A stretch of DNA of 37,702 nucleotides, taken from assembly GCA_947624945.1 (NCBI GenBank), contig CANQMJ010000001.1, positions 1 to 37,702 on the forward strand, in the 5' to 3' direction. The translations under genes and the position numbers were made by a program. The first letter of the stretch is position 1; every line of letters begins with the position of its first letter. This DNA comes from an uncultured Clostridia bacterium. GTDB taxonomy: Bacteria; Bacillota; Clostridia; Oscillospirales; CAG-272. This document shows, in pieces, positions 20,451 through 34,277 of this stretch. Under the pieces are notes generated by a model that was given only the letters and a program-made list of their open reading frames with translations, was not told where the DNA came from and searched no databases.

Positions 20451-20460
20451 AAGATGAATA

Positions 20461-20494
20461 TTGTATTGCAATCCGCAATACAATATGATATAAT
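20461..20494 (+). promoter_or_regulatory. TA-operon promoter with overlapping palindromic operator
   Basis: TTGCAA (20466-20471), 17-nt spacer, TG-extended TATAAT (20489-20494). The 9-bp inverted repeat ttgtattgc-N5-gcaatacaa (20461-20483) covers the -35. Confidence 0.7.
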
Positions 20495-20519
20495 CGGGTA
20501 TAGAAAGGCGGTGATAATC

Positions 20520-20816
20520 ATGCCGACAAAAAGCGCAAACGTGACGGCTCGCGTTCAGCCCGAGATAAAGCGTCAGGCGGAGGCGGTTCTTGAGAGGATA
20601 GGACTGCCCGTTTCGGTCCTGATAGATACACTGTACAGACAGATAATAATGACGGGCGGAGTTCCGTATTCGCTGACTGTGCCGAAGCTGCCGACGAGAG
20701 ACGGCTTGACAGATGAGCAATTTGACGAGATGATGGAAAAAGGCTTTGATCAGGCAAGATCGGGCGACGGAGTGTCCGTTGACGAAGCATTTGCGAAGAT
20801 CCGCGACGGTATCTGA
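20520..20816 (+). CDS. relB: RelB/DinJ-family type II antitoxin
   Basis: MPTKSANVTARVQPEIKRQAEAVLERIGLPVSVLIDTLYRQI is a typical RelB/DinJ ribbon-helix-helix N-terminus. ATG 20520 follows aaaggcgg. Confidence 0.8.
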   Translation: MPTKSANVTARVQPEIKRQAEAVLERIGLPVSVLIDTLYRQIIMTGGVPYSLTVPKLPTRDGLTDEQFDEMMEKGFDQARSGDGVSVDEAFAKIRDGI

Positions 20817-20872
20817 GCAGGGGGTATGAGATAAAGCTGACTTCGCAGGCAGTCGGGCAGATCGAGGAGACT

Positions 20873-21160
20873 GTGCAGTATATATCCAAAGTTCTGCTCG
20901 AGCCGCAAACCGCAAGAAATTGGGCGGATACGATGCAACGTGAGATCGAGAATCTGCACTCTATGCCGCAAAGATATCCTCTTGTTGAGGATGAGCCGTG
21001 GCATACAAAGGAAATACGCAAAATGCTTGTCGGAAATTTCCTTGTTTACTATTTTGTTGATGAGGAAAGCAAAACCGTGTGGGTCACGGCTGTGATATAC
21101 GGACGGAGAGATCAGCTCGCGGCGCTGCTCGACATGACGCCGGATGATGCGGAGCGATAG
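20873..21160 (+). CDS. parE: ParE/RelE-family type II toxin (start codon unresolved)
   Basis: ParE-like core (PQRYPLVEDEPW...RKMLVGNFLVYYFVDEESKTVWVTAVIYGRRD). The frame is open from 20783, and 20825-20872 encodes the expected N-terminus YEIKLTSQAVGQIEET. There is no in-frame ATG/GTG/TTG before GTG 20873. Confidence 0.7.
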   Translation: MQYISKVLLEPQTARNWADTMQREIENLHSMPQRYPLVEDEPWHTKEIRKMLVGNFLVYYFVDEESKTVWVTAVIYGRRDQLAALLDMTPDDAER

Positions 21161-21262: not shown

Positions 21263-22426
21263 TCACAGGGCCTTTATCAGAAATTCAAATCCGACGAGAA
21301 CGGCGAGGAACGCGAAGTTGAAGAGCGAAAACTCGGCGACGTATTTCAGTGCCTTGCCCGGATTGTGCTTCACGTACTCGCGGAACGTGATGAGGCTCGC
21401 GAGCGACGCTATGAGCGAGCCGACGCCGCCGACGTTGACGCCGACGAGCAGGTCGGCGTAGTCGGAGGTGAACTGCGACAGCAGTATCGCCGACGGGACG
21501 TTGCTGATGAACTGGCACGACAATGTGCTGAACAAAAGCGTGCTCTTGTCGAGCAGCATCGAGAAGAAGTCGCGCACGACGCCGATGCGCGCCATGTTGC
21601 CGGAGAAGATGAAGAAGAATACGAACGTCAAGAGCAGAGGATAGTCGACCTCGGTAAGCGCATGACGGTCGGCGAAGAACAGCACTATCGGGATCACGAT
21701 GAGTCCTATCCAGTACGGTATGCCGCGGAACACGATCGCTATCGCGAGCGCGAACAGCACAAGGTACAATGCGGCGCGCCGCGGGTCGACGTTGTCGTGA
21801 CCGTCCTCGACGGACAGCGGCTCGGGCTTGACGAAGATGAAGCAGCATGCCGTTATCATCGCGACCGAAAGCACGAACGGCGGCGCCATTATGGACATGA
21901 ACTCGCCCGTCGGTATGCCGAACTTAGTGTAGAGATACAGGTTCTGCGGGTTGCCGAACGGCGTCAGCATGCCGCCGAGATTGGCGGCGATGTTCTGCAT
22001 GATAAAGGTGAACGCCATGTACTTCTGCTTGCCGGTCGTGGACAAAACGAGATATCCGAGCGGCAGGAATGTGAGCAGCGCCATATCGTTGGCGATCAGC
22101 ATCGAGCCGATGAATGTTATGTACACGAGCGCGAGTACGCTCATGCGCGCGTTCTTGAACAGCGCCACGACTCTGTGCGCGAGCATGTAGAAGAAATTGA
22201 TGTCGCGCAGTGCGCACACGACGGCGAGCACGCAGAACAGACACGTCAGCGTCTTGAGATCGAAATAGCCCGCGTAGCTCTCGTCAACGGGTACGATTAT
22301 GCTCGTCACAGTCGCCGCTATGAGCGCTATGACCATCACTACATTCTTTTTTGCAAATCCGACCGCAGCCGACGCCGCCTTGTGCGCGCGAACCGCTGCG
22401 GTCACATGCTGTGCCTCAGTCACCAT
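21263..22426 (-). CDS. ArsB/NhaD-superfamily anion permease (citrate-transporter-like, PF03600 type)
   Basis: 387 aa, about 10 or more TM segments, TPFGNPQNLYLY motif typical of the superfamily. The overlapping + strand ORF 21167-22468 is Arg/Glu/His-rich junk. Confidence 0.8.
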   Translation of the reverse strand: MVTEAQHVTAAVRAHKAASAAVGFAKKNVVMVIALIAATVTSIIVPVDESYAGYFDLKTLTCLFCVLAVVCALRDINFFYMLAHRVVALFKNARMSVLALVYITFIGSMLIANDMALLTFLPLGYLVLSTTGKQKYMAFTFIMQNIAANLGGMLTPFGNPQNLYLYTKFGIPTGEFMSIMAPPFVLSVAMITACCFIFVKPEPLSVEDGHDNVDPRRAALYLVLFALAIAIVFRGIPYWIGLIVIPIVLFFADRHALTEVDYPLLLTFVFFFIFSGNMARIGVVRDFFSMLLDKSTLLFSTLSCQFISNVPSAILLSQFTSDYADLLVGVNVGGVGSLIASLASLITFREYVKHNPGKALKYVAEFSLFNFAFLAVLVGFEFLIKAL

Positions 22427-22453
22427 GAAACATGCACTTCCTTCCGAACGAAT

Positions 22454-22482
22454 ATTATAGTAATATAATTATTAAATGTCAA
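22454..22482 (-). promoter_or_regulatory. Consensus sigma-A promoter for the permease gene
   Basis: On the - strand: TTGACA (22482-22477), 17-nt spacer, TATAAT (22459-22454). RBS ggaaggaag lies before the ATG at 22426. Confidence 0.7.
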
Positions 22483-22499
22483 GCGGGAGAGGAAAAACT

Positions 22500-22932
22500 T
22501 TTTGAAAAAAATAGAATTTGATACAGCAAAACCGCATCGTGCCGTAGGCTTTCTCAACCACACCTACATGCACCGTGCTCGTGCGCTGTTCGGCGCTATA
22601 GCTGACGGGCAACGTGCCGTAGGCTTCGCGGCTTCACCTACGTGCACATCGCTCGTGCGATGACGGCGCTCCCAGCGTCAAACGCAGACACGACGCTTAG
22701 ACGGCGCACTCGCCATGCCGCGAGGGAGCTGTTATGCCGAAGTGTTGACGCGGTCTACGCCCTGTCGCCTCTTTTGCCGCCGATTGAATCACATCGACGG
22801 CACGCTGTGTCGCTTTCGGGGATCATTAATGGGGCTGGGAGATTCCGCAAGCGGAATCTCCTTACGACATTGGAAAGAGTCCCTTAATACGCGTGTATTC
22901 GTCGTGCGTAGGACGAAGTGAACACTTTATGC
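22500..22932 (-). ncRNA. Candidate structured non-coding transcript (unclassified); ends are guesses
   Basis: Lies downstream of the putative - strand promoter at 22939-22967. Contains strong hairpins (22842-22865, 22776-22801) and two tandem copies of the repeat unit. No credible ORF. Confidence 0.2.
22537..22733. repeat. Left arm of the long imperfect inverted repeat (includes two tandem hairpin units)
   Basis: 22601-22733 aligns by eye with the reverse complement of 23052-23190. Long shared blocks include gccgcgagggagctgtt, acgcagacacgacg, cgctcgtgcg and ggcttcgc.gcttcacctacg. 22537-22597 is a second direct copy of 22611-22670. Confidence 0.8.
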
Positions 22933-22938
22933 TGTGAG

Positions 22939-22967
22939 CTTATAAAAAATTCACACTAATTTGTGAA
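22939..22967 (-). promoter_or_regulatory. Putative leftward promoter inside the island
   Basis: On the - strand: TTCACA (22967-22962), 17-nt spacer, TATAAG (22944-22939). Weaker match than its + strand neighbour. Confidence 0.35.
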
Positions 22968-22973
22968 AAATAC

Positions 22974-23002
22974 TTGACAAATCACGAAAAATGTGGTATA
23001 AT
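22974..23002 (+). promoter_or_regulatory. Near-consensus orphan sigma-A promoter facing right
   Basis: TTGACA (22974-22979), exact 17-nt spacer, TG-extended TATAAT (22997-23002). The next CDS is about 400 nt away and has its own promoter. Confidence 0.7.
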
Positions 23003-23008
23003 ATAGGC

Positions 23009-23325
23009 AGTTAAGGGAAAGAGGTGTTTGCAGGCCCGGCGGGGGGCTGCGAACAGCTCCCTCGCGGCGGGGCGATATCGTCGTCCAAACGTCGTGTCTG
23101 CGTCGAACCGTGTTGCGCCGTCAACGCACGAGCGTGGTGCGCGTAGGTGAAGCTGCGAAGCCTTACGGCGGCAGTTCGTCGCTGACGCGCCGACCTGCGA
23201 CACGTTTCCGCTTCGCGGAAAGTGTGGCGTTGCCATCGTTTGGACGGCGAATTTATAAAATGATGTATACTTTATGCAAAAACTAAAACAAAAAACATTT
23301 TCATTCCGACATGGAATTTTTGCAT
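23009..23325 (+). ncRNA. Candidate structured non-coding transcript (unclassified); 3' end is a guess
   Basis: Starts after the orphan promoter. GC-rich with no credible ORF. Local hairpins at 23042-23061 and 23201-23229, and a 13-bp long-range complement (23079-23091 with 23237-23249). A weak hairpin plus T-run lies near 23303-23321. Confidence 0.3.
23052..23250. repeat. Right arm of the long imperfect inverted repeat
   Basis: Reverse complement aligns with 22601-22733 (see left arm). The tail 23237-23249 is an extra inverted copy of the cg.tt.gacggcg word found at 22694-22706. Confidence 0.8.
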
Positions 23326-23331
23326 GTTCTC

Positions 23332-23360
23332 TTGACAAAAACGAAAACGTATGATATTCT
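23332..23360 (+). promoter_or_regulatory. Promoter for the RHH regulator gene
   Basis: TTGACA (23332-23337), 17-nt spacer, TG-extended TATTCT (23355-23360). Confidence 0.5.
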
Positions 23361-23405
23361 ATTTATGCTCCGATTAGAGCATATTCTTGCTACAGAGGTA
23401 CATTT

Positions 23406-23798
23406 ATGGAAACGAGTGAAAAGGTATCCGTCAACATGAACATCGCAACGCTGTCTCAAATCGACCTTTTGGTCGATAAAGGGTACTATTCCAACCGAAG
23501 TGATTTTATCAATCAGGCTGTGAGGCAGGCGCTTGGTGAGAAAAGAGCGGTCGTCGAGGAGACGAGCAGGCAGCAAAACGAGCTTGATTTCAGATGGTTC
23601 ATCGGCGTGATGTCTCTTGAAAAAGAGGAACTGCTGAAAGCAAAAGAGAGCAATATCAAGATAAAGATCAAGGGTTACGGGCTGCTGTGCATCGACGGCG
23701 AGCTCGACGACCTCGTGCTCGAAAATGTTGAGAGCGTCGCCGTGAAGGGCAAAGTCATATGCTCCGACAGGATAAAGGAGCATTTTAAGATACGGTGA
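23406..23798 (+). CDS. CopG/ribbon-helix-helix DNA-binding protein with an uncharacterised C-terminal domain
   Basis: VSVNMNIATLSQIDLLVDKGYYSNRSDFINQAVRQAL has the RHH beta-alpha-alpha pattern. The remaining roughly 85 aa have no motif I recognise. Lower GC than neighbours. Confidence 0.65.
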   Translation: METSEKVSVNMNIATLSQIDLLVDKGYYSNRSDFINQAVRQALGEKRAVVEETSRQQNELDFRWFIGVMSLEKEELLKAKESNIKIKIKGYGLLCIDGELDDLVLENVESVAVKGKVICSDRIKEHFKIR

Positions 23799-23880
23799 AG
23801 GACTATTTAGGAATCAAAATAGACGCAAATGCACATTACCTCGCCCGTTTATCCGTCATGACCCTCCCCGCAAAAAATGA

Positions 23881-23909
23881 TTTACACTTCCCGCATCTTG
23901 TGCTACAAT
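23881..23909 (+). promoter_or_regulatory. Promoter for the flavoprotein-ferredoxin operon
   Basis: TTTACA (23881-23886), 17-nt spacer, TG-extended TACAAT (23904-23909). RBS ggaggg lies before ATG 23930. Confidence 0.6.
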
Positions 23910-23929
23910 AAAGTGACGGAGGGTGTGCG

Positions 23930-32230: not shown

Positions 32231-32752
32231 ATGGACAAGGGAAAAACGGGACGTTATATAGCGGCGCGCCGCCGCGCGGCGGGACTGACGCAGGAGCAGC
32301 TCGGGGAGCGGCTCGGCGTGTCGTATAAGACCGTGTCGCGCTGGGAGAGAGGCACATATATGCCCGATATCGAAATGCTCGAGGCACTGGCGGCGACATT
32401 TTCGGTCACGGTCGACGAGATCATAGCGGGCGAGGACAAAATAAACGCGCGCGGCGTTGTCGGTGACGTAAATATCAACACAGACGGCGCAACCGCAAAA
32501 CCCGACGCAGACGACGCCGCGCCGTCCGCGTTCACTGTCGGCGACCGCGCCGCATACTTCAAGCGCAAATGGCTCCGCGACCATATCGCGTTCATCGTGA
32601 CCGTCTACGTTGTGATAGCCGCCGTCGGGATATTCGCCGTGCTGCGCGTCGGCACGGTCGCGGCTGTGCTGATGGCGCTCGCATCGGCTGCCGCCGCAGT
32701 ATATTTCCGCAATTCGATGATGGCGTATGTCGAGGCGCGCGTGTGGAAATGA
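32231..32752 (+). CDS. XRE-family HTH protein with C-terminal transmembrane segments
   Basis: IAARRRAAGLTQEQLGERLGVSYKTVSRWERGTYMPDIEMLEALAATFSV is an HTH_3 domain. Two hydrophobic spans lie near the C-terminus. ATG 32231 follows ggaggtggg. Confidence 0.7.
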   Translation: MDKGKTGRYIAARRRAAGLTQEQLGERLGVSYKTVSRWERGTYMPDIEMLEALAATFSVTVDEIIAGEDKINARGVVGDVNINTDGATAKPDADDAAPSAFTVGDRAAYFKRKWLRDHIAFIVTVYVVIAAVGIFAVLRVGTVAAVLMALASAAAAVYFRNSMMAYVEARVWK

Positions 32753-32770
32753 CGCCGCATACGTTAAAAC

Positions 32771-32796
32771 AAAAAGGGGGCAAACGCCCCCTTTAC
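32771..32796. terminator. Bidirectional terminator between convergent genes
   Basis: aaaaagggggc-aaac-gcccccttt, with A/T runs on both sides. Confidence 0.75.
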
Positions 32797-32807
32797 TATA
32801 TATTGCC

Positions 32808-34091
32808 TTAATACGTCTCGATCATTTTGCCTTCGCTTTGCGCCCACGCTTCCGCAAACGAACCGGCAGGAACGTGGAACTTGATGTTTCCGCAGCCGTT
32901 GAACGCCGCCTCAGAAATGTCCGTGACGCCCTCGTGCAGCGTCAGGTCGGCAAGGCTCGAACAGTCGGTGAACAGCATCGTCGACACTGTCGTAACGCCC
33001 TTCGGTACGGTGAACGCGCGCAGCGAGCGGCATCCGGCGAACGCGGACGGCCCCATCGTGGTCATCGTGTCGGGGAGGTTTATCTCGACGAGCGTCGTGC
33101 AGTCTCTGAACGTGTTGCGCACAAGCTCCGTCACAGAATCGGGCACCGTCACCGACGTGAGCGACTTGCACGACTCGAATGCGCCCTCGCCGATAGAAGT
33201 CACAGACGAAGGGATATTGAGTTCCTTAAGCGACGAACAGTATATGAACGCCTCGCGTCCGATGGACGTCACCGTCGACGGGATCGTGCACGACGTCATC
33301 GACGAGCACTTGTAGAATACGTGCTCGGGCAGCTCCGTCACGCCTTCGGGGACGACGGCGGACGGGAGCGACTCGCAGTCCATGAACGCGCTCGAGCCGA
33401 TAGATGTTACGGTCGAGGGGATAGTGAAATCGGAAAGAGAGACGCAGTCGACGAACGTGTTCACGCCTATCGCGGTCACTGCCCCTTCGAATTTCACCGA
33501 TTTGAGCGACGAGCATCCGGCAAACAGACCGTCGGGCGCCGTCGTTATCTTCGCGGGCAGTGTCGCCGATTCGAGAGACGTACAGTTGAAGAATATGCGC
33601 GTGCCTATATTTTCAAGCGTCGACGGGAACGTGACCGAGCGAAGCGCGCGGCACTCGCTGAACGCCATATTGCCGATAGTCGTGACGCCTTCGGGGATCA
33701 CGATGCTCTCGAGCGCGCTGCAGCTCGCGAACGCGTTTTCGCCTATCTCGACGAGTCCTGCGCCGAGCGTGACCGTCGTCATGCCCTTCGTGCCGCGGAA
33801 CGCGTCCTTGCCTATTTTCGTTATCGTGTCGGGCAGCGTTATCGACTCGAATATCTCGTCGACGAACGCCTCGTCCGCGATCTCCGTTATCGGAACGCCC
33901 TTGTACTCGTCGGCGACGGTGACGTTCTTCGACTCGCCCACATAGCGCACGATAACGGCGTGGTCGCCGACTATCTCGCAGCGCACGCCGAACGTGCCCT
34001 TCCCGCACGATGTCAAAACAAACAGCGCCGTCACGGCGGCGAGCACGAACGCAAAGACTGCGGTCTTCTTCAATATCCCGACATTTTTCAT
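32808..34091 (-). CDS. BspA-type leucine-rich-repeat (LRR_5) surface lipoprotein
   Basis: Signal peptide plus lipobox (LFVLTSC). About 14 tandem repeats of roughly 23 aa of the form IP.(S/G)VT.IG..AF..C.SL. The + strand ORF 32727-34151 is Arg-rich junk. Confidence 0.8.
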   Translation of the reverse strand: MKNVGILKKTAVFAFVLAAVTALFVLTSCGKGTFGVRCEIVGDHAVIVRYVGESKNVTVADEYKGVPITEIADEAFVDEIFESITLPDTITKIGKDAFRGTKGMTTVTLGAGLVEIGENAFASCSALESIVIPEGVTTIGNMAFSECRALRSVTFPSTLENIGTRIFFNCTSLESATLPAKITTAPDGLFAGCSSLKSVKFEGAVTAIGVNTFVDCVSLSDFTIPSTVTSIGSSAFMDCESLPSAVVPEGVTELPEHVFYKCSSMTSCTIPSTVTSIGREAFIYCSSLKELNIPSSVTSIGEGAFESCKSLTSVTVPDSVTELVRNTFRDCTTLVEINLPDTMTTMGPSAFAGCRSLRAFTVPKGVTTVSTMLFTDCSSLADLTLHEGVTDISEAAFNGCGNIKFHVPAGSFAEAWAQSEGKMIETY

Positions 34092-34127
34092 GTAAAAATC
34101 CCCTCAAAACGCATATATTCACATATC

Positions 34128-34156
34128 AGTATACCAAATCCGCCGATGTAAATCAA
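34128..34156 (-). promoter_or_regulatory. Promoter for the LRR lipoprotein gene
   Basis: On the - strand: TTGATT (34156-34151), 17-nt spacer, TG-extended TATACT (34133-34128). Confidence 0.55.
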
Positions 34157-34210
34157 TAACCGACGCCAAAGTTTACAATCTGTTAATATTTCTTTCTCAG
34201 CAGATCGAGC

Positions 34211-34259
34211 GACGGTATCACCACACTTTTCGCAAAGCGGAAAGTGTGGTGATACCGTC
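34211..34259. repeat. 49-nt hairpin with 23-bp stem (one G-T) and AAA loop
   Basis: All 23 pairs checked by hand. Lies between divergent promoters. Shares gcggaaagtgtgg with 23215-23227. Confidence 0.85.
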
Positions 34260-34277
34260 TGCGGCGCCGCGCGCACG

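Follow-up and report, generated by a model that had tools for sequence, protein, structure and literature searches.

The intergenic gap at 22427-23405 of the analysed DNA, a 37,702-nucleotide contig stretch from an uncultured Clostridia bacterium (hereafter the window), lies between genes for a CitMHS permease (21263-22426, - strand) and an RHH_8 regulator (23406-23798, + strand), and it holds no apparent gene but a long inverted repeat with a promoter inside it. The question is what such an island is. The initial annotation suggested a pair of homologous, divergently transcribed structured RNAs, and named a foldback MITE remnant among the alternatives. Here, we consider it probable that the island belongs, as a canonical copy, to a lineage-specific family of non-coding mosaic repeats that is present in many copies and carries a promoter, akin to the Correia, BOX and BIME elements. 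The repeat is previously undescribed, and it is more likely to be selfish or regulatory DNA than to encode a unique pair of structured RNAs.

A gene-free island with long inverted arms

As first noted, the island contains no credible gene: the open reading frames within 22427-23405 had no Pfam match. A 118-aa ORF across the right arm, which we regard as spurious, was tried as a handle on the family through predicted proteins, and two protein searches (5.8 billion proteins and 1.84 billion representative proteins) found zero relatives, which also argues against a decayed gene. Both neighbouring genes have promoter-like sites of their own, as had been proposed, located at 22482-22454 on the - strand for the permease gene (12/12 hexamer matches) and at 23332-23360 on the + strand for RHH_8 (10/12). 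The statement that no recombinase gene lies in the window also held, since a domain scan of 38 window ORFs detected no recombinase, transposase or invertase domain; 6 of the 38 were without any Pfam match.

The long imperfect inverted repeat was readily confirmed, with ~81% identity over the aligned core, far above chance: the local inverted-alignment score was 61, compared with 9.6 +/- 1.2 (maximum 15.5) in 200 dinucleotide shuffles. It contains two ungapped inverted blocks, 22621-22669/23115-23163 (49 nt, 90%) and 22682-22733/23052-23103 (52 nt, 85%). The motif CACCTACNNGCACNNNGCTCGTGCG occurs three times in the window (0 expected), and an invariant 14-nt block, ACGTCGTGTCTGCG, is found inside every arm. 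The GC content of the arms is 0.61-0.68 versus 0.26-0.43 in the flanks. The whole element covers about 22511-23271 (~0.76 kb) and thus exceeds the arms originally described.

Distribution of the family

When 185,579 species genomes were searched with CACCTACNNGCACNNNGCTCGTGCG, 17 loci were found, all of them in a single MAG (uncultured Clostridia MAG Lapin-004__bin51); two further matches, in Actinobacteria, were due to chance. A core profile search of this MAG identified 29 arms at 19 intergenic places. The copy count proposed in the initial annotation thus gave ~20 unrelated intergenic sites, among which pairing is not conserved, and this counts against the RNA pair, as the annotation itself had stated for such an outcome. 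The module map is common to different loci. A head-to-head (-,+) arm pair around a central module is present at 11 places (10 in the MAG and one in the window), and among the 19 MAG places and the window there are no tail-to-tail or full-length tandem core pairs. Neighbouring genes are unrelated (OGG, beta-galactosidase, Cys/Met PLP enzyme, ClpP, LytR, PHP and others) and have any orientation relative to the arms and the promoter. Some copies, such as L017, have no co-oriented gene on either side, and L021 lacks a promoter module; three copies (L013, L021 and L022) are symmetric, with long leaders on both sides.

Arms of one element could be expected to resemble each other most if they had co-evolved to pair. 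This foldback reading was rejected, as arm-arm identity is 0.81 within one element versus 0.79 +/- 0.05 between different elements. The left core arm of the window is 81% identical to the right arm and 80-86% identical to the MAG copies.

Outside this lineage, a gapped core pattern gave only one chance match in JGI metagenome contigs, on a high-GC actinobacterial contig, and viral contigs, scanned three times with core, M and promoter-module patterns, gave zero matches. In a blastn search of plasmids and phages, the sole match was a generic promoter stretch of 52 nt in Bacillus plasmids. No copy had a transposase next to it, and the ~8 kb read around each copy linked neither a transposase nor a RAYT or invertase to the family.

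Module organization of the element

The element is modular and consists of core, leaders, central M/M', promoter module and hairpin tails. The following features were assigned in the window:

22511-22610, - strand: left tail (partial core match by nhmmer; direct repeats D3/D4)
22611-22737, - strand: left core arm, a ~125-nt GC-rich unit (nhmmer E=7.9e-35)
22738-22799, - strand: leader module b1, adjoining the left core (common to L013, L015, L020, L024 and L029)
22800-22938, + strand: central module M', a short variant of M (from alignment with the orthologous MAG locus)
22950-23030, + strand: promoter module Pr (12/12 consensus; 15 family copies)
22950-22967, within the promoter module: palindrome TTCACAC-TAAT-TTGTGAA
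22974-22979, + strand: putative -35 element of Pr, TTGACA
22997-23002, + strand: putative TGn-extended -10 element of Pr, TATAAT
23030-23050, + strand: short leader 'a', hairpin GCAGGCCC...GGGCTGC in the gap between promoter and right core
23048-23170, + strand: right core arm (nhmmer E=9e-32)
23171-23271, + strand: right tail, composed of X, H2, H1 and T (inverted repeat I5 and family comparison)
23171-23200, + strand: linker X
23201-23226, + strand: H2 palindrome, CACGTTTCCGC-TTC-GCGGAAAGTGTG
23228-23250, + strand: H1 hairpin, complementary to core 23078-23091
23251-23271, + strand: terminal stretch T
1-211, + strand: central module M of a truncated second copy (84-96% identical to the inter-arm M modules of 12 MAG loci)
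34210-34262, no strand assigned: solitary extended H2-type palindrome, GACGGTATCACCACACTTTTCGC-AAA-GCGGAAAGTGTGGTGATACCGTC

A full copy contains two ~125-nt GC-rich core arms in inverted orientation and spans roughly 0.7-1 kb. Outward of each arm, small hairpin modules (H1, H2, S and T) follow in a variable series, and tail composition differs from copy to copy. Between the arms lie a leader, which is b1 or c, the module M or M' (~140-210 nt) and the promoter module (~80 nt), which points via the short leader 'a' or a long leader into one arm. The ends of M' are homologous to those of M, with a different hairpin inside, GGGAGATTCCGCAAGCGGAATCTCC (22838-22862); the orthologous MAG locus has M in place of M', and further M' copies were detected in L011, L020, L021 and L022. 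Leader 'a' is present in the window, L024, L007, L008, L009, L014, L015 and L017, and its hairpin shows a compensatory C-G to T-A change in the ortholog that can be read directly from the sequence. The left tail contains a terminal hairpin-like stretch (22520-22538) and a third, partial core copy in direct, tandem orientation (22536-22611). The second family copy, truncated, opens the window contig, and the palindrome at 34210-34262 indicates that the hairpin module is also found alone.

Neither a sharp common terminus nor a conserved short TIR was found, the outer ends being ragged and different between copies. Target-site duplications were likewise not found, with ragged ends and no empty site to fix the boundaries. 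One candidate family terminus, CGCGGTTTTGCTGTATCAAWTTC, was rejected because it is confined to the window locus. Long-range pairing between H1 and core 23078-23091 (12/14 positions in the window) occurs in a few other copies but is not general.

A conserved internal promoter

The strong rightward promoter proposed within the island was well supported: 22974-23002 reads TTGACA-17-TATAAT, matching the consensus at 12/12 hexamer positions, with a TG extension. The predicted start is close to 23009, and conservation between copies extends over the first ~20 bases of the transcript (ATAGGCAGTYAAGGGAG...). Among the 15 promoter modules of the family, the -35 hexamer is intact in 13 and the -10 hexamer in 14; mean conservation is 0.98 in the hexamers, 0.79 in the spacer and 0.60 upstream, and it is the middle of the spacer that varies. 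Since both hexamers are perfect in 12 of the 15 copies while the spacer varies, the promoter of this repeat family looks to be under selection. The module is oriented either way relative to M, depending on the copy. Consensus promoters are also found elsewhere in this genome, for example at the permease gene, a tRNA gene and the gene adjoining L012.

The leftward promoter suggested at 22939-22967 is weak. It reads TTCACA-17-TATAAG, with the last T of the -10 missing, and was not reported by a promoter scan; in most family members the conserved stretch of the promoter module does not include this -10, which is also missing at the orthologous locus. The left arm is, as judged from these predictions, without a credible promoter of its own. 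With only one of the two promoters holding up, a unique pair of homologous divergent structured RNAs is not supported.

In the window, the right arm would be transcribed by the one credible promoter of the element. No terminator was predicted beyond that arm, so read-through in the direction of the RHH_8/flavoprotein operon is probable. The resulting right-arm RNA may be a by-product or a local regulatory input, and not a dedicated structured-RNA gene.

RNA structure and coding tests

One alternative is that the copies are expressed non-coding RNA genes, each making, from the conserved promoter, a trans- or cis-acting RNA of ~250 nt composed of leader, core and hairpin tail. Besides the conserved promoter positions and first transcribed bases, several structural features are consistent with this. 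The RNA 23010-23262 folds better than its shuffles (z = -3.3), where only one side of a predicted core helix has changed, the change always gives a G-U pair on the transcribed strand, and the small hairpins in M and H2 keep their pairing through double changes. On the other hand, the opposite strand folds equally well (z = -3.2), as is expected of DNA palindromes. The conserved structure proposed for the ~125-nt unit was not supported either: the consensus fold is weak for either strand (-14.5 and -13.5 kcal/mol), and among 17 predicted core pairs only one was compensatory, with 116 of 500 shuffles doing as well. Mutual information in the core alignment revealed zero Watson-Crick pairs, and the antisense strand was equally weak. 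Covariation over module M as a whole was not above shuffles and was limited to three hand-picked 4-5-bp hairpins.

Scans against Rfam gave no family match, in line with the initial view that the unit is not a terminator, a short REP or a riboswitch: at gathering thresholds, the window and 15 related loci contained nothing but two tRNAs, and at permissive E-values up to 10 only chance-level matches appeared. Moreover, the 3' end of such an RNA is not defined by any predicted terminator, its tail would differ in composition from copy to copy, and the left arm, the solo arms and the copies without a promoter module would be silent. A guide-RNA reading of the variable 25-nt block within the conserved scaffold was rejected, the longest matches to its own flanking DNA being 8-12 nt, the same as for unrelated loci. 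Considering both sides, we regard multi-copy RNA genes as unlikely.

A small protein encoded in the leader (ORFs 23024-23146 and 23028-23150, with short ATG ORFs in other copies) was also considered; it was ruled out by a 2-nt indel in the ortholog, an unconserved start codon and the lack of a Pfam match.

Sequence turnover at the same site and the possibility of inversion

The orthologous permease|RHH site of the MAG (L024) made a direct comparison between strains possible. While the permease flank and the promoter module have identities of 0.97-0.98 (98% for the promoter module) and the surrounding genes 94-95%, the arms are only 0.78-0.82 identical. The window right arm has better matches in MAG copies at other loci (85-86%) than in its orthologous MAG arm; its nearest relative is the same-locus core arm of strain contig L029 (91.8%). 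In addition, the tails, as well as the inner junction of the right arm, vary among the closely related strain contigs L001, L003, L029, L030 and L031. X and H2 are missing from the orthologous arm in L024, L001, L029, L030 and L031, and an H2-type hairpin replaces the left tail in L003 and L024. At the RHH-side arm, three inner junctions were observed: Pr-a (window and L024), rcM-b1 (L029) and rcM-c (L031). Thus, modules have been swapped between strains, and there is rapid sequence turnover at one chromosomal site. Short-read contigs break at the element; on the permease side, a search for the junction or an empty site found that the contigs of L003 and L033 end short of it, and L032, a close permease match, has other neighbouring genes and no element; no empty site was recovered.

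These junctions bear on a second alternative, in which the islands are invertible promoter cassettes. The inverted cores would be recombination sites, an invertase encoded elsewhere would flip the centre, and the single strong promoter would drive the left or the right neighbour by turns. Indeed, 11 places have an inverted repeat-promoter-inverted repeat arrangement, in each case with a single strong promoter between inverted arms, with the invariant 14-nt block in every arm and no predicted outward terminator. A flip of an L024-like centre would produce the rcM-b1 junction of L029, the L029 core is orthologous to the window right core, and Pr occurs in either orientation relative to M. Inversion has also been reported for Correia elements (PMC10969869).

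That the L029 leader resembles the ortholog's left-arm leader was considered as proof of inversion and rejected: copies at other loci are equally similar (~96%), so there is no locus-specific evidence for a flip. Symmetric long-leader elements (L013, L021 and L022) give the same junction without a flip, and both complete orthologous copies, in the window and L024, share one orientation. No invertase was found in the window, no permease-side contig was found that extends to the element centre, and neither L017, with no co-oriented gene to drive, nor L021, with no promoter module, fits such a switch. Invertons such as fimS and the Mpi-controlled promoters of Bacteroides are similar in having a promoter between inverted repeats and many similar copies per genome in a gut bacterium. 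However, their repeats usually measure tens of bp and are almost identical, with an invertase that is known or adjacent, whereas the arms here are far longer and more divergent (~125 nt, ~80% identical) and no invertase was detected among the 38 window ORFs scanned. Invertible cassettes, with multi-locus phase variation as their result, are somewhat less likely still than the RNA genes. Equally doubtful is its genome-wide form, in which ~20 cassettes with unusually long repeats recombine at the invariant arm block, flipping or exchanging centres and redirecting the promoter; if it were true, the three RHH-side junctions would be snapshots of the process.

Finally, an origin of the island from the remains of a coding gene or insertion sequence that decayed and was duplicated in inverted orientation is highly improbable: although the arms have a GC content like that of coding DNA, unlike the AT-rich intergenic flanks, and are crossed by long open frames, their conserved blocks are separated by length differences of 1, 2 and 3 nt among copies, protein, plasmid and phage collections contain nothing similar, and the same non-coding architecture is fixed at ~20 sites.

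A probable mosaic repeat and its implications

The mosaic repeat that we favour accounts for the dispersal over ~20 sites, the fixed head-to-head architecture, the modularity, the lack of coding capacity, the conserved promoter positions, and the fast sequence turnover and exchange of modules at a single chromosomal site. The family may have spread and been rearranged as DNA, whether through a trans-acting transposase or recombinase, through ectopic recombination and gene conversion between its copies, or through both. Several observations fit this explanation less well, including the absence of a linked transposase, RAYT or invertase around the copies and of a target-site duplication, sharp terminus or empty site. 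Size, arm length and GC content are outside the usual description of MITEs (PMC10969869). Most copies retain a perfect promoter and some small hairpins have changed in a compensatory way, which suggests a function beyond pure selfishness, and consensus promoters are common in the genome anyway.

If this explanation is correct, the island represents a new family of sizeable modular repeats that carry promoters, in an uncultured Oscillospiraceae-like lineage of the rabbit gut. This family would have seeded a consensus promoter into about 20 intergenic regions, and its sequence would change in place several times faster than the genome around it. Such islands should not be annotated as RNA genes or ORFs, they would break short-read assemblies, and they would contribute regulatory variation at strain level. 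Their importance would be much greater if the cassettes were invertible or made functional RNAs.

Comparison with known repeat elements

Prokaryotic MITEs are multi-copy, non-coding and mostly intergenic elements, typically under 500 bp and AT-rich, with TIRs of ~4-30 bp and flanking direct repeats, for which a related autonomous IS supplies the transposase in trans (PMC10969869). The present element is also multi-copy, non-coding and intergenic (29 arms at 19 MAG places plus two window copies), but it is 0.7-1 kb long and GC-rich, with inverted arms of ~125 nt plus tails and no conserved short outer TIR. The foldback MITE remnant offered by the initial annotation as an alternative came closest to the truth in its MITE-like foldback nature; it is not a remnant, but a full canonical member of a living family with its promoter intact.

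Sigma-70 promoters and inversion have been documented in Correia elements and other bacterial MITEs, and the internal promoters of Correia elements can drive neighbouring genes (PMC10969869). Our element and these Neisseria MITEs are alike in that they are intergenic and present in many copies, have inverted-repeat ends and internal sigma-70 promoters, and differ between strains (PMC10969869). Correia elements are, however, about 100-200 bp long with short TIRs and a TA duplication, whereas the element described here is 0.7-1 kb, GC-rich and modular, with arms of ~125 nt or longer and one central promoter module, and has no detectable duplication and no sequence similarity to them.

BOX elements of Streptococcus pneumoniae are modular as well (PMC10969869). 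Like BOX and the BIME/REP elements of enterobacteria, which are mosaics of short hairpin modules in variable number and order, the family has alternating unit orientation and modules that also occur singly, is intergenic and lineage-restricted, and has a strain-dependent composition. BIMEs are mosaics of hairpin-forming units, and BIME/REP elements are linked to RAYT transposases. The present family differs from BOX and BIME in its much longer units and its fixed symmetric architecture around a conserved consensus promoter, and shares no sequence similarity with them. REPINs, which are REP doublets that form hairpins and are mobilised by RAYTs, are about 100 nt long with a short spacer and no promoter. 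The element is likewise an inverted pair of GC-rich units, but the pair spans ~0.7 kb and encloses a promoter-bearing centre of ~310-580 nt.

An intergenic island with a long inverted repeat

Here, the island within the 979-nt gap between a CitMHS-type permease gene (21263-22426, - strand) and an RHH_8 regulator gene (23406-23798, + strand) was filed as a dispersed non-coding mosaic repeat outside any named family. The feature is real and non-trivial. The initial annotation had described a gene-free island with a long imperfect inverted repeat, between genes that each possess their own promoter, and all of this was borne out: none of the ORFs within the gap had a Pfam match, promoter-like sites were found for both genes, and the inverted arms are 81% identical over ~125 nt in a gapped alignment, including two ungapped blocks of 49 nt (90% complementary) and 52 nt (85%). 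The local inverted-alignment score of 61 is far above that of 200 dinucleotide shuffles (9.6 ± 1.2, maximum 15.5). A partial third copy of the core, the ~125-nt GC-rich unit that forms each arm, lies in tandem at 22536-22611.

Features of the repeat family and of the flanking promoters in the window (nucleotide positions; strand where assigned)
1-211: central module M of a second family copy, 84-96% identical to copies in the related MAG
22482-22454, - strand: promoter-like site of the permease gene, 12/12 hexamer matches
22511-22610: left tail
22611-22737: left core
22738-22799: b1 leader
22800-22938: M'
22950-23030: promoter module Pr
23030-23050: 'a' hairpin
23048-23170: right core
23171-23271: right tail, made of the modules X, H2, H1 and T
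23332-23360, + strand: promoter-like site of the RHH_8 regulator gene, 10/12 hexamer matches

Comparison of the copies revealed a canonical plan: a tail, a core (-) and a leader (b1 or c); the central module M or M' (+); Pr; a short leader 'a' or an inverted M-b1; and finally a core (+) with its tail. M' is a short variant of M, with ends common to both and different perfect hairpins. Each tail strings together a variable set of small palindromic modules, such as H2 (CACGTTTCCGC-TTC-GCGGAAAGTGTG), whose pairing is kept through double changes (ccgc/gcgg vs tcgc/gcga). Module S plus H2 is found within M in one subfamily and also in tails. The hairpin modules also occur as stand-alone REP-like units; a solitary 53-nt palindrome around H2 (GACGGTATCACCACACTTTTCGC-AAA-GCGGAAAGTGTGGTGATACCGTC) is located at 34210-34262, 3' of the ORF at 32727-34151 and upstream of rplM.

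Distribution of the family

A 20-base core motif, present three times in the window against 0 expected, was searched for in 185,579 genomes, one per species, and was found at 17 loci of a single genome, that of the related rabbit-gut MAG 'uncultured Clostridia bacterium Lapin-004__bin51' (CANPXS01); the only two other matches were chance occurrences in Actinobacteria. A profile of the ~125-nt core detected 29 arms at 19 places in this MAG. Head-to-head (-,+) core pairs, with 311-583 nt between the cores, were observed at 10 of these places as well as in the window, and neither tail-to-tail nor full-length tandem pairs were seen among the profile matches. The copies are intergenic, next to unrelated housekeeping genes (including those for 8-oxoguanine glycosylase, beta-galactosidase, a Cys/Met PLP enzyme, ClpP, LytR and PHP) with no fixed orientation in respect of the arms or the promoter. 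Because bases 1-211 of the window correspond to module M, its contig starts within a second copy; a hairpin (GGGGGAAAACTTTT...AAAAGTTTTCCCCC) follows at ~256-285, just upstream of a GH43 gene (343-1299).

Apart from a single chance match, no family sequence was detected in JGI metagenome contigs; viral contigs and phage records gave zero matches, and plasmid records only a 52-nt generic promoter match. The element is also absent from the related loci of more distant relatives (L025-L028, L032). Each short-read contig with the RHH or permease gene (L001, L002, L003, L029, L030, L031 and L033) stops in or at the edge of the element, the contig ends falling at cores, the M hairpin or tails when placed relative to window positions 22540-23175. 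In these metagenomes, assemblies break systematically at members of the family. A common ~170-nt sequence (GGGACCCCTTTTTGTAGAAAGGTAGGAG...GGACCGATTAGTG.TTATCTTAAGCTAT) was noticed outside the tails of two different elements (L014:7200-7430 and L015:650-880); it represents either a separate repeat family or an additional module, and had no Rfam match at the gathering threshold.

One conserved promoter per element

The near-consensus rightward promoter recognized previously (22974-23002) matches TTGACA-17-TATAAT perfectly and has a TG extension. The leftward one proposed beside it was not confirmed: in TTCACA-17-TATAAG the conserved final T of the -10 is missing, the promoter scan did not report this site, and its -10 is absent from the orthologous locus of the MAG. 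Among 15 copies of Pr in the family, the -35 is TTGACA in 13 and the -10 is TATAAT in 14 (both perfect in 12), and TGTGG is found ahead of the -10 in every one of the 15. Averaged over columns, conservation is 0.98 in the hexamers, 0.79 in the 17-nt spacer, whose middle part is variable, and 0.60 upstream; the first ~20 transcribed bases are conserved too. Pr is the best-kept part of the element. Since its hexamers are conserved and its spacer varies, each element appears to carry one promoter that is functional and under selection. Promoters of consensus sequence are frequent in this genome, those of the permease gene and a tRNA gene being examples.

Pr is directed at a co-oriented neighbour in ~6 copies and at a convergent one in ~4, and hence is not a dedicated leader for one kind of gene. 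In the window, transcription from Pr would proceed through the right arm toward the RHH gene, and read-through is likely because no terminator is predicted 3' of this arm. A perfect palindrome (TTCACAC-TAAT-TTGTGAA, 22950-22967), centred ~50 nt upstream of the inferred start of the element promoter, could be an operator for some regulator; it is complete in about half of the family copies, and the rest keep its right half only.

Coding potential and RNA structure

The family is non-coding and contains no recognizable structured RNA. The stretches separating conserved core blocks differ by 1, 2 or 3 nt among copies, and searches of 5.8 billion proteins and of 1.84 billion representative proteins found no relative of the 118-aa ORF that lies over the right arm. 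The Rfam scan suggested initially, applied to the window and 15 related loci, matched no family other than two tRNA genes. The predicted RNA of 23010-23262 folds better than shuffled sequences (z = -3.3), as do its reverse complement (z = -3.2) and the left unit (z = -3.1); such folding on both strands is what DNA palindromes give. For 26 cores, either strand gives a weak consensus structure (-14.5 and -13.5 kcal/mol), no Watson-Crick pair was among their top column pairs by mutual information, and the pair-count test yielded one compensatory pair, a count reached by 116 of 500 shuffles. Module M as a whole likewise showed no covariation above shuffles. Three small M hairpins, a biased choice as they were picked by eye, do covary (17 cells vs 8.3 ± 2.2; 0 of 500 shuffles as high), which says only that the hairpins are kept, in DNA or RNA. 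Where only one side of a pair in the predicted core helices has changed, the outcome on the transcribed strand is always G-U, a weak hint of RNA pairing that is biased by how the structure was derived.

The initial reading of the island as divergent structured RNAs that form a unique pair is thus not supported, given the failed leftward promoter, the lack of core covariation and the dispersal of the unit over many unrelated intergenic sites without conserved pairing. The element is most likely repeat DNA.

Turnover at the permease-RHH site

The same element is present at the same site in the MAG (locus L024), where the surrounding genes are 94-95% identical to those of the window. The permease start with its promoter (97%) and Pr (98%) are similarly conserved, whereas identity falls to 82% and 78% in the two cores. 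In addition, M' of the window is replaced by M, the left tail differs, and X and H2 are missing from the right arm. Copies at other MAG loci are closer to the right arm of the window (85-86%) than the orthologous arm is. Differences were also observed among contigs of closely related strains (RHH 95-100% identical): L001 and L030 have a different right core and tail, and L003 has an H2 hairpin in place of the partial tandem core. Pr-a adjoins the inner side of the right core in both the window and L024; its place is taken by inverted M-b1 in L029 and by inverted M-c in L031.

Arms that belong to the same element resemble each other no more than those from different elements do (identity 0.81 vs 0.79 ± 0.05), and therefore mutual pairing as the force that keeps them alike was ruled out. 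Inversion of the segment that the two inverted cores enclose is possible: it would produce the junction of L029, whose core is orthologous to the right core of the window (91.8%, best match). However, copies at other loci match the L029 leader equally well (~96%), some elements (L013, L021 and L022) are symmetric, with a long leader on either side, and the two complete orthologous copies are oriented alike. None of the permease-side contigs obtained extends to the centre. Moreover, no recombinase domain was found among the 38 window ORFs scanned, in agreement with the initial annotation. The turnover in place would best be accounted for by ectopic recombination or gene conversion among copies.

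Comparison with known repeats

BIME/REP are mosaic repeat elements, which the family resembles; its modules have the same mosaic make-up as these and BOX elements. It works like the promoter-bearing repeats reviewed in PMC10969869, which include the modular BOX elements and Correia elements with sigma-70 promoters, inverted ends and reported inversion. It does not fit the usual description of MITEs (<500 bp, TIRs of 4-30 bp, AT-rich; PMC10969869) in length, TIRs or composition. Its outer ends are ragged and vary from copy to copy, and no target-site duplication was detected at them. The earlier rejection of a terminator, a short REP or a riboswitch was correct. The family is previously undescribed; its design is unusually large, symmetric and centred on a promoter, and it is rapidly remodelled in place.

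Neighbouring genes

A RelB-like/ParE-like toxin-antitoxin pair (20454-21160) adjoins the permease gene, and has the same place in the MAG and strain contig L003. Between its RHH and flavoprotein genes, the MAG carries an additional gene, Rce1-like (CPBP protease; L024:6541-7137), which is absent from the window (23799-23929); the flanks of this site are ~95% identical. Finally, a hairpin (ATGCTCCGATTAGAGCAT, 23364-23383) just 3' of the RHH gene's own -10 is kept in all strain contigs; it may serve in RHH autoregulation, as an operator or as a leader structure.
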